From positions 20,901,910 to 20,965,909 of the forward strand of contig NC_134031.1 of assembly GCF_964204645.1 (NCBI RefSeq): 64,000 bases of DNA, written 5' to 3'. Source of the stretch: Tubulanus polymorphus (Eukaryota > Animalia > Nemertea). Position numbers and translations under genes: made by a program. Below the pieces are notes generated by a model. It was not told the origin of the DNA, searched no databases, and was given only the letters and a program-made list of their open reading frames with translations. Of this stretch, positions 20,656 to 39,789 are shown in pieces (position 1 is the first letter of the stretch; each line of letters opens with the position of its first letter).

Positions 20656-23600
20656 TCATGAGCCGCAGCGCCCCCACTCGTTAGCTGTGTCGTTATTCTC
20701 GCAGATCGGATATTTCTGGCAGCAATCGGCCGATGTTTTGCAGGGGAATCCGTACCAACATTCGTAGCAGACCTTCGCCGCTTTGTCACATATGTTATCA
20801 ATACGACAGCAGTCTTTACTAGAATGGCATGGTTGACGGTAACACGAACGATTCGGTAATAAGAGCCACGGGCGTCGTCTGAAACATTTAAATAACATCA
20901 CAGTTTAATCGAAACAATCTTCGATCAATATCGGCCTAGCAATACTAACAGGCCCGTACCGAGTGTGAGGGTTTGGGGGTAGCGAACGTTCCCCCCAAAA
21001 ATTCCCTTCAAAATCAGTGTAAAAAATTTGGGTCAAGATTTTTCGAAATTTTGATACAATTTTTTTTTGAAAATGAAAACAATCCATTCTCAAATGATTC
21101 ATTCAGGTACCCGGACACTTCATATGTAAGGTTTGTCCTTTTCAATAGGAAAGTGCTTCTTTTCATAGTGAAAAAGTGGTTTTCTCTTGAAATAGAACTG
21201 CCCCTCAAAAAACGTTCGGCACGGACCTGCTATTCTCGGAATCATCAAAAACCAACTGGACAACTAGTCATCGTCTCAGTCTCAGTATATCGATATCGTT
21301 ATTTTAGAGCCACAACCGAAGCACATCGTTCGACTTAACACTTGTAAATAGAGAATATGGAGTTAAATATGTTGGCTTTGACTTTTGTTTCAACATCAGA
21401 TTAATGGTTTGTGCGAGGCTGTTTTCATTAGCTTGTACCTATAATAACACAGTAAATATTTTAAGAGTTTGCTGTTTTCATTAGCCGTTAGATATATAGC
21501 CACTATACGCTAAAATAATGAAGTAAATTGTCAGGGGAAATAACAAGCGAGGTTTAGGATCCGATACGTCGAATAAATCATGGCGATCAACGAAAGCCCA
21601 TTAAAAGAATTTGAAAGAAACTGTTTTACAAATAAAGCACTATGTGCGCGACTGCGCATGCGCGTGTGTGAGAGATGCGGGCCTCAACAGTCGTCGCTAT
21701 AGGGACAAGCCGCGATCAACCGAGCATTTTTGGCCCGCACCAAAACAGGCCCGGAATAACTGTTTACACGGGTGCCAAATTAGGCCCGAGCCAAATTTAA
21801 ACATGGGTCAAATAATTGAATGTGAATTGGAACTGGTTTTCGGAAATAGTTTATAAAATCGAGCGAGTGAGTGGTTTACGTGTGAACGCACTCTCTAATT
21901 ATCGTCTCCGTGTGATAAGGCGGGTGTTGGTCGGACTTGCGGGATGCGATGCGGTCACTCTACGCCCGGCTTAACGGAGGCATCAGAGAGACTTCTGTGA
22001 TTGTATTAGCAGTCTAATCATTTAATTGGAAGTTGGTTTGATGCGGTGATCTACATGGATCAAAGTACCCGTAGCCATCTACCCGAATTCACTGGCTTCA
22101 AATGCCAAAATAATATGTACGTGAATCAATCGTGATACGTTGTCGTTAGATTCACAGGCGCAATCTGTTTTTCTCGACTAAACACAAGCTAATGTAAAAC
22201 CCATTATGATATTAGAACAACCGACCCTGTTTCAGCGTGGATAATGGCTGGATATATTGTGGTTTTTCAGGTTCTAGCAAATCGTAATTTCGATAGCTAA
22301 CTGAAATTATATCCCGCACTGAACTAGTTATTTCAATCGCTTCGTTAATTATGCACGTAACGTGTAACGACACCATGTTTTGAATCCATAATATGCCCAT
22401 TGAGAATTTATCCGGTAGCCACGCCATAAAAACTGACGAAAATTATGGAAAAGGTTGAAATTTATGGGTTTAATTCATGAGGTTTGTTAACGGTTTTCTC
22501 ACAGTCTCGAGAATTTCTAGCTAGTTGGCCGTTAAATTTCGGTTGGCTGGCAACAGCGGTAGACATTTACCGTACTTATTTGGTGTCGTCTTGCGGAGGA
22601 GAAGCTCTGGTATTTTTAGGATCATAACAAAGCGAGGAGCGGTAGATATTTCTATTGACCAAGAGCAAACTATCAAGCTACGGAAAATCCAATATTCCTG
22701 GCATGAACGCGGTACTCATCATCAAAAATTAATTCCCATTCTTGTTTTCCAGAATATTGTGTAAGCGGTCACCGAGCTCAGGTTCACACTCCAGATTGTC
22801 TGCGTGTCATATTTATTTCCTGCGCCTTCGATGAATTGTATCATTAATTCACGCTCGGAAAGAGTTTCCAAGGTCAAGGCCTATACATAAATAAGAATCT
22901 CCACAAGCTCCGTATCTATAGCGCGCCGTAACTCAACTTAAGCTCGTTATATCATTTTTGACCAGAAACACAGCAGAATACAAATTCAGAATATCATACA
23001 CCCAATAAATACAGAAAATATTCTCATCGCAGACCGTCTGCGGCCTATATCGTTTCTAGTGGTGACAAGATGAGCTACATCGAGGGATTAAGCTAAAGGT
23101 GGCACTATCAATGGCGGCGCAACAGCCAAAGTGGGTTTTGCTAGTTTGATGCTATATAATACATGGCCGGATTATTTTCTATCCCACTAGAGAAATAAAA
23201 CTAATGGACCGCGGTTATAACTCGTCTGTGTGTGTGTGTGTTTGATGGTCACGGCGTTCCCCATGTTTATTCACATCACGCCGTGCACATGTATTATCAA
23301 TCAATTCGAACCAATCAAATATTTAAATTAACAGGGGCTGCTGGTACAATACATATAACTTCATGCACGACCATTTGCATAAATCTAGTCTGATTAATCG
23401 GTGTATGAAAGGCCAATGGTAGGCAGCGGCTTCGTGTGATGGTCGTATTGGTGAGAGCCGCATATCGGTACATCATTCCTGTTCATAACTCACCTTCTAA
23501 GCAAATAAAGCTGCCAACCAGATCGACTTCTTCCACCAAACCTGTAAAACAAATGTTTCAATGATAAACAATAAGATTGCGCTTCCGGGTGAATGTACGA

Positions 23601-38600: not shown

Positions 38601-39789
38601 TGAGAAGCGGTGTTTGCGAGGAAATGAATGATAACTCGGGTGGTCGTTTGGGTTTCTTCGATAAACCCAGTTCATCGACGCAAACCATTGACGAGTATAT
38701 CGATATTATATTGCCGTCGACACTGCGATGATGGGCTTCATTGATGAATTGCCTTTTCAAACAAATTTGCTTTTAGAGCCAGTAACCGTGGTTTAGCACA
38801 ATATTCAGGGAGCGCATTATGAACATGTCCGCAAACATAAAGCGCGCGACGACGTCACGGTTTGATTCGTGTTATCGCCATAAAACCACTAATTTAGCGC
38901 AGAAAATTCAGTCCATTCTCTGCGCCGTATTGAATAGATTTTATCACCGATAAGGTTTAATCATTAATGAGAAGCCAGTGAATATTTAAGCAATCCTGTA
39001 ATTGCAAAATGATACCTTGTAACGACGATCTTAAAAAACGTTTGCATTGTTCTTGTCGTAGTGGAGTTGTTCTGTATATTCAAGGTGAACGACTAAACGG
39101 TTTTTACCAGACGATGCCCGCACGCGCTCAACTCGACAGGATACAACACAAGATATAACGGAAGTTTCGGGCGTCACGGGTTCCGCCTAATCGAATTGGA
39201 TATTCTACACTTCAGACAGCAGATATCTCGTCATCACGTTGACTAAGTAAGAAACGTGCACTAAAGCACGCTTTAAACAGATAGGCTGTAACTGCGCGTG
39301 AGCCGTTCAAATATTAATAGAAAGAAAAGAAATGTATTATCTTTCACCTGCATTAGGCTTATGAGTGGAAAAGTATTGACTTAACGGATAGATTTTCATT
39401 TGACAAGAAGAAATGTCGGCCTGAGTACCTTTTAACGAGACAATGAATATGCATACATCGGGAGTGAGTTACGTTAACGAGTTCGCAAACTATCTCAGAG
39501 ATAAGTCATTTGGAAAATAAGAAACGATACATATCATAATGTGCTTATTATATATTTTCATATGTTCTCATCTAGAAGAATATTATTCTAAATTCCGTTA
39601 TATGAAAATACGAAATATCACACTTAAACATAATGAAAACGATGAAAGATGATGATGATAATTATTATTATAAACATTACCTTCATCTAGTTTTAATCCG
39701 TTATCGGAATAAAAGAATCCATCTGCGGAGTTTAAAATTGTTAATGTTACAAATCCTGCAAAAATGTAACTAATTAATCCCAGCCGCAT
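20656..39789 (-). CDS. Secreted Cys-rich prepropeptide with tandem (double) knottin/ICK-like domains, 126 aa, 3 exons
   Basis: Exon 1 is 39789-39681 ([36 protein letters not shown]+G|gtaat). Exon 2 is 31643-31595 (ttttctatttcttttag|AT GCA...GAA AAA AG|gtaag = [16 protein letters not shown]). Exon 3 is 20878-20656 (tttcag|A CGA CGC CCG TGG...; [74 protein letters not shown]). Phases 1 and 2 match and the total is 381 nt. Layout is signal peptide, acidic pro-region, KRRR cleavage site, 12-Cys mature peptide. Confidence 0.75.
20949..21229. mobile_element. MITE-like element (CAGGCCCGTACCGA...TCGGCACGGACCTG termini)
   Basis: Imperfect 14-bp terminal inverted repeats; no TSD recognised. Confidence 0.5.
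25930..26690 (+). pseudogene. Decayed rhodopsin-like (FMRFamide/sex-peptide-receptor/Srw-like) GPCR, TM4-TM7 remnants
   Basis: ORF 26135-26545 contains TM5 ([21 protein letters not shown]), ICL3 and TM6 ([20 protein letters not shown]). A TM4-like piece ([14 protein letters not shown]) lies upstream. A TM7-like piece ([23 protein letters not shown]) follows the in-frame TGA at 26543 and a frameshift. No intact TM1-3 is seen. Confidence 0.6.
27066..27237. repeat. (TA)n microsatellite, ~86 units
   Basis: Pure alternating TA tract. Confidence 0.99.
29829..30028. mobile_element. PIF/Harbinger (Tourist-like) MITE, 200 bp
   Basis: Perfect 19-bp TIRs GGGCGGGCGCAGGAAAACC / GGTTTTCCTGCGCCCGCCC flanked by the 3-bp direct repeat CTG (29826-29828 and 30029-30031). 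Confidence 0.85.
34033..34205. repeat. (AT)n microsatellite, ~86 units
   Basis: Pure alternating AT tract. Confidence 0.99.
35398..35469. mobile_element. Dispersed MITE end, an inverted copy of 40390-40458
   Basis: gacgaaaagggcgacctcagtgggaaggcaggggtccggacc...aaatccgcccctg is approximately the reverse complement of 40390-40458. Confidence 0.7.
35879..35911. promoter_or_regulatory. Cluster of CRE-like sites (TGACGTCA, TGCGTCA, GACGTCA) with an inverted CCAAT box, in intron 1 of the knottin gene
   Basis: Three CRE full or half sites within 33 bp. Function is not shown. Confidence 0.35.
38309..38345. promoter_or_regulatory. Second CRE-like cluster (TACGTCA, TGACGTCA, TGACG)
   Basis: Seen directly, 1.3 kb into intron 1 of the knottin gene. 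Confidence 0.3.

Follow-up and report, generated by a model that had tools for sequence, protein, structure and literature searches.

A predicted tandem cystine-knot peptide conserved across lophotrochozoans, encoded by an uncharacterized gene of the nemertean Tubulanus polymorphus: a likely endogenous ligand

The gene considered here lies in a window of 64,000 nucleotides (nt) from the nemertean Tubulanus polymorphus (assembly GCF_964204645.1, contig NC_134031.1, forward-strand positions 20,901,910 to 20,965,909), within which all positions below are counted. A sequence-only reading of this window had pointed to a hidden three-exon gene for a secreted peptide with two tandem inhibitor cystine knot (ICK) units. 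The gene is in fact already present in RefSeq, where it is annotated as the uncharacterized LOC141908837, with five coding exons on the minus strand and two isoforms, X1 of 165 amino acids (aa) and X2 of 142 aa. Relatives with the same Cys layout can be found across clams, snails, octopus, segmented worms and lamp shells, and for this reason the product is probably an overlooked hormone-like signal and not a venom toxin. The gene comprises the following elements:

39681..39789, minus strand: coding exon 1, 109 nt, with the start codon, the predicted signal peptide and the start of the acidic spacer; ends in phase 1; matches the N-terminus of RefSeq isoforms X1 and X2
31595..31643, minus strand: coding exon 2, 49 nt, acidic spacer ending in E-K-R; a phase-2 intron splits the Arg codon
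29263..29331, minus strand: coding exon 3, a 69-nt cassette of isoform X1 only, phase 2-2, with AG/GT flanks
23494..23541, minus strand: coding exon 4, 48 nt, phase 2-2, spacer with a conserved W-x-x-Y-L-L motif and the first part of RRRR
20656..20878, minus strand: coding exon 5, 223 nt, with the remainder of RRRR, the PWLLLP lead-in, the 12-Cys tandem knot-type domain and the stop
19990..20655, minus strand: 3' untranslated region covered by a spliced contig (minimum extent), with AATAAA at 20540, 19916 and 19910

Translation of the five-exon model gives RefSeq isoform X1 letter for letter, and that of the four-exon model gives isoform X2 just as exactly. The three exons proposed earlier keep their coordinates, their GT donors and their AG acceptors, but two exons (29331-29263 and 23541-23494) had been overlooked, and the supposed 10.7-kb intron between exons 2 and 5 actually consists of three introns of 2263, 5721 and 2615 nt flanking them. 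The 126-aa product of the three-exon model is open in frame as claimed but equals neither isoform; the underlying join of exon 2 to exon 5 may occur as a minor isoform, although nothing in the data shows it. A 1175-nt contig of sequencing run X1, which behaves as spliced RNA (runs X2-X4 cover introns), spans 19990-20878 together with 23494-23543 and skips 2615 nt with CT..AC ends on the plus strand, and thereby provides a transcript-like record of the splice from exon 4 to exon 5. The junction obtained is therefore 23494/20878 and not the 31595/20878 expected from three exons, while the upstream joins (exons 1-2, 2-3, 3-4 and 2-4) are taken from the RefSeq models. The other 236 nt of this contig map outside the compared stretch, their length fitting exons 1-2 plus a leader. 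The Lineus orthologue also has alternative exons at the position of the cassette.

The precursor is composed, in order, of a predicted signal peptide (approximately residues 1-24, with a hydrophobic window of 2.4 at residue 9), an acidic spacer, a KR site, a segment of 14 or 37 residues, an RRRR site and a domain of 71 residues; the predicted mature peptide thus has 71 aa and, with six disulfides, a mass of about 8.15 kDa. The signal/pro/mature layout read from the sequence alone holds, but the propeptide end then given as K-R-R-R was an artefact of the two overlooked exons, the true precursor having KR and, 14 or 37 residues further on, RRRR. The latter fits the R-x-x-R furin consensus, and one of its Arg codons is split by a phase-2 intron at the exon 4/5 junction (checked in the T. 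polymorphus gene). The hydrophobic N-terminal stretch, the acidic spacer and a [DE]-KR site are found again in precursors of nemerteans, molluscs and Lingula, and the segment from KR to PW differs among the isoforms of Tubulanus, Lineus, Pecten, Octopus, Physella and Lingula b. No hydrophobic stretch appears within the first 55 residues of three draft models, those of Capitella a, Lottia and Helobdella a.

Two further motifs can be found ahead of the domain. The W-x-x-Y-L-L motif (23494-23541), which precedes the basic cluster, is common to nemerteans and annelid paralogue a (Platynereis secretome entry 2653); the segment is helical in the model and may be a pro-helix or a separate peptide. 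A second conserved motif, C-x-C-T-C-E-T, is present in the long precursors P0018, P0020, P0024, P0028, P0033, P0035, P0037, P0040, P0048 and P0053, which include Helobdella; it lies shortly after a dibasic site and far upstream of the knot domain, and possibly belongs to a second small peptide.

The domain itself, encoded by exon 5, has the 12-Cys pattern previously reported, C-x4-C-x5-CC-x5-C-x6-C-YE-C-x5-C-x5-CC-x5-C-x11-C, both halves of which fit the C-C-CC-C-C spacing of the ICK (knottin) frame. A loose version of this double-knot pattern occurs once in the six frames of positions 5001-64000 and in none of 200 base shuffles, positions 1-5000 being excluded because of a Cys-rich tandem repeat. 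Across the family, the spacing C-x4-C-x5-CC-x5-C-x6-C-x2-C-x5-C-x5-CC-x5-C-x(6-23)-C is exact in 86 of 90 proteins (73 distinct domains). Among these exact members the last loop (x6-23) is the sole variable one, and the two-residue C-x2-C joint between the halves is invariant in the family. The other four proteins comprise two isoforms of a Lingula paralogue in which one loop is shorter, the incomplete record P0057, and P0061, which lacks the pattern. In complete precursors the domain ends 1-9 residues before the stop and is not followed by a second one.

Conservation extends beyond the cysteines. A PWxxL lead-in and a DCWYG core are both conserved in the family: [PA]WxxL stands ahead of the first Cys in 64 of 69 distinct domains, W42 (numbering of P0001) is present in 69/69 cores, and P58, G44, R15, D23, D32 and D40 are each found in 88-98%. 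At non-Cys core positions, identity to Tubulanus amounts to 27/37 in Lineus, 23/37 in Pecten, 21/37 in Capitella a, 20/37 in Lingula a and 14/37 in Aplysia. Between Tubulanus and Lineus, the mature part is the most conserved (69% identity, as compared to 38% for the signal and 36% for the propeptide). This is the reverse of the usual pattern of venom peptides, in which the signal is conserved and the mature part varies.

A search with exon 5 yielded four candidates, all four being members: two identical isoforms of T. polymorphus and two isoforms of Lineus longissimus (70% identity). With phmmer, 50 matches were obtained against 1.84 billion representatives at E ≤ 0.001, 43 of them at E ≤ 1e-10; one of the 50, P0010, is a spurious repeat match without the CC pair and was dropped. 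Profile searches added further members (20 of 568 and 36 of 374 candidates). The named records, all labelled uncharacterized or hypothetical, belong to 28 species: 2 nemerteans, 11 bivalves, 8 gastropods, 3 octopuses, 3 annelids and Lingula (organism names were taken directly for 20 of the 50 phmmer matches). None of them falls outside the Lophotrochozoa, where four phyla are represented (nemerteans, molluscs, annelids and a brachiopod); the species are mostly non-venomous, mostly filter feeders and grazers, and orthologues are present in scallops (LOC110464976), mussels, clams, pond snails, Aplysia (LOC106012205), Octopus (LOC106874007), Capitella and Lingula. Supplements of published papers contain a further member from a chiton and two paralogues of Platynereis (secretome contigs 2653 and 112529). 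Judging from these matches, the double-knot family is not a nemertean novelty. Among the matches each species has one locus name, except Capitella, Helobdella and Lingula with two each; the Platynereis secretome file also contains two. A tree of 70 rows recovers the nemerteans (99/88), the pectinids, the heterobranch gastropods and a 30-row group around Capitella b.

No named family accounts for these proteins, as had been stated at the outset. None of 48 members reaches the cutoff of any Pfam family, nothing relevant was found among 22 members in NCBIfam, Rfam has no match in 18000-54000, tblastn against phages gave no match, and all Atlas matches are below 0.8. Toxin_23 appears below cutoff in 14/48 members, Toxin_35 is matched by none of the 48, and Dickkopf_N has no Pfam match among the 48 at E ≤ 0.5. 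Profile matches were weak, namely omega-atracotoxin-Hv2a at E 0.005 over half the domain and Hi1a at E 0.3 over the full length (non-significant). The UniRef labels "Granulins domain" and "SMB domain", carried by three members, were set aside as lacking Pfam support.

Regarding the literature, the family is unnamed and is in no named list of the neuropeptide surveys PMC8557429, PMC6425005, PMC3890597 and PMC8398477 as searched (papers other than PMC8557429 that are given here by accession are cited for the parts covered, and PMC5747525 as a background source only). Its motifs were not found in the supplement of Thiel et al. (PMC8557429; about 1,300 precursors), where all seven CWYG matches are G protein-coupled receptors (GPCRs) and a control motif gave 48 matches. 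Members are present in the raw secretome file of De Oliveira et al. (PMC6425005) and none was found in its clustering files, two of which were covered in part; likewise, members occur in the secretome file of Conzelmann et al. (PMC3890597) and none in its named lists (11 files searched). The families described in the parts covered of the oyster ganglion paper (PMC8398477) do not fit, and of its three CWYG matches the two displayed are PTTH/trunk, although block-formatted alignments could hide the motif. Full-text search for the motifs, the Cys pattern and the locus identifiers returned only an unrelated plant paper and a spider-venom paper, subscription papers lying outside its coverage, and topic searches of open full texts gave no description of the double-knot family.

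Several other features are present in the window. Within the intron between exons 3 and 4, a broken GPCR fragment lies antisense to the peptide gene (25735-26760, plus strand); its part 26057-26545 matches 7TM_GPCR_Srw at E 2e-5, with flanks broken by stops, and low-depth contigs of sequencing run X1 lie over 26393-26550 and 26619-26968. The last intron harbors short interspersed repeats (21021-21212 and 21748-21901) with very high contig depth and many loose ends in four runs. Directly downstream, a ubiquitin C-terminal hydrolase gene (about 9435-17538, minus strand; UCH at E 1e-6, with a ubiquitin-like domain) resembles USP48. The upstream neighbor (52946-62852, minus strand) has a 7.7-kb open exon encoding a 2574-aa coiled coil, together with further small exons. 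At 1582-4693 on the minus strand, an open reading frame of 887 aa contains an 11-residue Cys-Cys tandem repeat whose match to Galaxin_repeat (E 8e-18) possibly arises from composition, and an adjoining reading frame of 144 aa has no family match. The remaining repeats (27066-27241, 34027-34205, 47115-47394, 17670-18167 and 6906-7760) consist of two (TA)n tracts of about 88 units, a 31-bp array of nine copies and two arrays of 57-bp units.

AlphaFold2, applied to a 48-row alignment, predicts two repeated hairpin units (pLDDT 79, pTM 0.55), the hairpins lying between Cys V and VI of each half (29-32/37-40 and 59-61/70-73); when the entire precursor is modelled, the domain comes out the same and the signal and spacer are helical. 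Each half aligns with single ICK peptides at a root-mean-square deviation (rmsd) of about 1-2.5 Å, with weak scores. For the whole domain, the top match is the C-domain of Draxin with both Foldseek (5z5k_B, E 0.09, prob 0.80) and VIA-align (Z 4.3, rmsd 4.0, 58 aligned), followed by colipase, the second cysteine-rich domain (CRD2) of Dkk1, CRD1 of Dkk4 (Z 2.8, rmsd 3.5, 50 aligned) and Bv8. The precursor model gives the same top match, which is not independent of that of the domain model, and knottin protease inhibitors are also among the weak matches. No structural match is significant, none being found at E ≤ 0.001 or at Z ≥ 5, and VIA-align states that a Z of 7-8 is typical for models without a clear match. 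DkTx and Hi1a are not listed in these searches, which is uninformative either way. The predicted fold appears to comprise two knot-like lobes, weakly nearest to the Draxin and Dickkopf domains, and from their spacing the cysteines would be paired I-IV, II-V and III-VI in each half.

Among known proneuropeptides, the agatoxin-like peptides (ALP/CCWamide) offer the closest parallel in gene layout. These are defined by eight conserved Cys in one unit and an amidated aromatic C-terminus, and in their genes the signal is encoded by the initial exon, the mature peptide by the final one, and a phase-2 intron interrupts a basic codon of the cleavage site (Thiel et al., PMC8557429). The double-knot precursor is likewise short, with a signal, a non-conserved spacer, a basic site and a C-terminal knot-type peptide, and in T. 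polymorphus, the only gene compared, the signal lies in exon 1, the mature peptide in exon 5 and a phase-2 intron in the basic codon. In contrast, it has 12 Cys in two units instead of eight in one, no amidated aromatic C-terminus, and no arthropod among its named matches. Membership in ALP/CCWamide therefore fails on Cys number and amidation; T. polymorphus moreover has separate CCWamide precursors (Thiel supplement). CLCCY, CP3-r and prohormone-3 are also secreted precursors with a C-C-CC-C-C-type unit according to the sequences of that supplement, where T. polymorphus has its own CP3-r and prohormone-3 entries. Unlike the double-knot family, and as compared by eye, CLCCY has 8 Cys, CP3-r has 6 Cys in one unit and prohormone-3 is longer with a different frame, all three being without PWxxLP or DCWYG. 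An oyster CLCCY peptide detected by mass spectrometry resembled the region ahead of the double-knot domain, but was rejected as a link since CLCCY precursors carry the different 8-Cys frame.

On balance, the conserved double-knot peptide is likely an endogenous neuropeptide- or hormone-like ligand and not a toxin. This reading, which we hold with moderate confidence, draws on conservation across phyla among animals without venom, on a low number of gene copies, on conserved surface residues, on the dibasic sites and on a gene layout like that of ALP/CCWamide. Secretion, cleavage, disulfides, neural expression and a receptor are what we infer for such a ligand. The signal peptide would route the precursor to the secretory pathway, where convertases would cut at KR and RRRR and release the 71-residue domain. 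Its 12 cysteines, paired as above, would give two knots that the invariant two-residue joint may pack into one two-lobed unit, and PWxxLP, R15, D32, D40-W42-Y43-G44 and P58 could form the surface for one slowly evolving host receptor. The rigid unit that the sequence-only reading expected from the short linker would agree with the invariant C-x2-C spacing and with the fold matches to the domain as a whole. Alternative splicing, by altering only the segment ahead of the domain, may tune processing or retention and not the binding unit.

Several observations weigh against such a ligand. The basic cluster directly before PW is present in nemerteans and several annelids and mostly absent in molluscs, so the mature N-terminus is not uniform and probably differs by phylum. 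The Tubulanus precursor ends in C-G-S-stop without an amidation signal, and an end of G/GK type is found in only 3 of 63 distinct short-tailed domains, each time directly after the last Cys. A phase-2 intron at Arg is a weak character because Arg codons supply AG. Low copy refers to locus names among the matches and not to whole-genome counts, the spacing counts are partly circular because the proteins were found by similarity, and the deep branches of the tree are unsupported, molluscs and annelids each failing to form one group. The models have a pTM of 0.49-0.55 and do not allow the disulfide pairing to be read, and their whole-domain matches are Draxin, colipase and Dickkopf domains and not neuropeptides. 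Lastly, the members in the raw secretomes of PMC6425005 and PMC3890597 are not named as neuropeptides there, as far as those papers were covered.

The ranking of Draxin first in both fold searches brings up an extracellular modulator of Draxin or Dickkopf type, whose two-lobed domain would, during development or axon guidance, bind a single-pass receptor of the DCC/Frazzled, LRP5/6 or Kremen kind. Dkk4 CRD1 has disulfides C41-53, 47-63, 66-80, 73-85 and 79-90, its second subdomain is called ICK-like, and its origin by duplication of one subdomain has been proposed (Patel et al., PMC6078440). The double-knot domain shares with it the C-x2-C joint and, as predicted, would share a full ICK second lobe and two knot-like subdomains in one domain, and an Atlas Dickkopf_N cluster at 0.79 provides a lead only. 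However, all the fold scores are below significance, and no sequence-level match to the Dickkopf family supports them. The domain stands alone, with no colipase-fold CRD2, and has 12 Cys where CRD1 (PF04706) has 10, an extra pair that, from spacing and not from computed homology, would complete the knot of the first lobe. Furthermore, Draxin is reported in vertebrates only (PMC8655782), separate dkk genes that have both domains are described for protostomes (PMC6425005), and the precursor layout with dibasic sites is neuropeptide-like. Such a modulator is therefore considered unlikely, if the most serious of the alternatives. Slightly less probable still is a conserved secreted knottin of defence or housekeeping, which in mucus, gut or haemolymph would serve as an antimicrobial peptide, a protease inhibitor or a cofactor of an enzyme. 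The weak fold matches include knottin protease inhibitors and colipase, and the domain is net cationic in the 8/8 members counted. Yet low copy and strong non-Cys conservation across phyla are unlike most invertebrate antimicrobial peptides, and an inhibitor would not need conserved dibasic sites or alternative spacer exons.

The sequence-only reading had left the choice between a bivalent toxin and a conserved neuropeptide, to be decided by conservation across phyla; with orthologues in four lophotrochozoan phyla, an endogenous peptide is favored and the bivalent toxin is unsupported. That the peptide acts on ion channels as a toxin in the mucus or proboscis of nemerteans, in the manner of spider DkTx or Hi1a, accordingly appears very improbable, despite some likenesses. 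The order of the 12 cysteines (C-C-CC-C-C-C-C-CC-C-C) and the arrangement as two tandem ICK frames are shared with HWTX-XX/DkTx (PMC4065081), the weak profile matches include omega-atracotoxin-Hv2a and Hi1a, nemerteans use ICK toxins (PMC5864730), and secondary recruitment of such peptides into venom is known (PMC8557429; PMC13311285). But DkTx, HWTX-XX and Hi1a are venom-gland products of single spider lineages, whereas the double-knot family is low-copy and found throughout the lophotrochozoan phyla sampled, with no restriction to venomous lineages. DkTx consists of two independently folded domains on a tether (PMC4065081), unlike the invariant two-residue joint seen here. The nemertean ICK toxins are themselves lineage-restricted, those tested showing positive selection (PMC5864730; PMC10674772): alpha-nemertides are single knots of 31 residues in Heteronemertea only (PMC5864730), and U-nemertotoxin-3, which carries Toxin_35, is a single-knot peptide limited to Lineus and Riseriellus (PMC10674772). 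Both share with the present peptide a nemertean origin, a signal/pro/mature layout and ICK-type cysteines, but the latter is a 71-residue double unit and, unlike alpha-nemertides, occurs in a palaeonemertean and in other phyla. The two nemerteans have one locus each among the matches, and the mature region is the most conserved. The main text of the mucus proteomes PMC11768458 and PMC12846013 mentions no such 12-Cys peptide, nor does PMC7460313, as far as covered, which is a weak argument.

With this gene, lophotrochozoans gain an unnamed and strongly conserved, probably secreted peptide family, members of which occur in standard models of neurobiology. The double-knot peptides known so far are toxins of spider venom; an endogenous member, if true, would show that this frame serves ordinary physiology too. 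The family is a warning that the Cys pattern alone is insufficient for calling nemertean ICK genes toxins. It is also relevant to the suggestion that domains of Dickkopf and colipase type go back to the duplication of a knot-like unit. More speculatively, and as an outcome we would regard as doubtful, the peptide could be the convertase-released ligand, with a complete tandem cystine knot and its own receptor, of an unrecognised and ancestrally lophotrochozoan signalling system, and could represent the ancestral state, with two full knots, proposed for the Dickkopf, colipase and Draxin domains. If true, this signalling system would be present in Aplysia, Lymnaea, Octopus and Platynereis.

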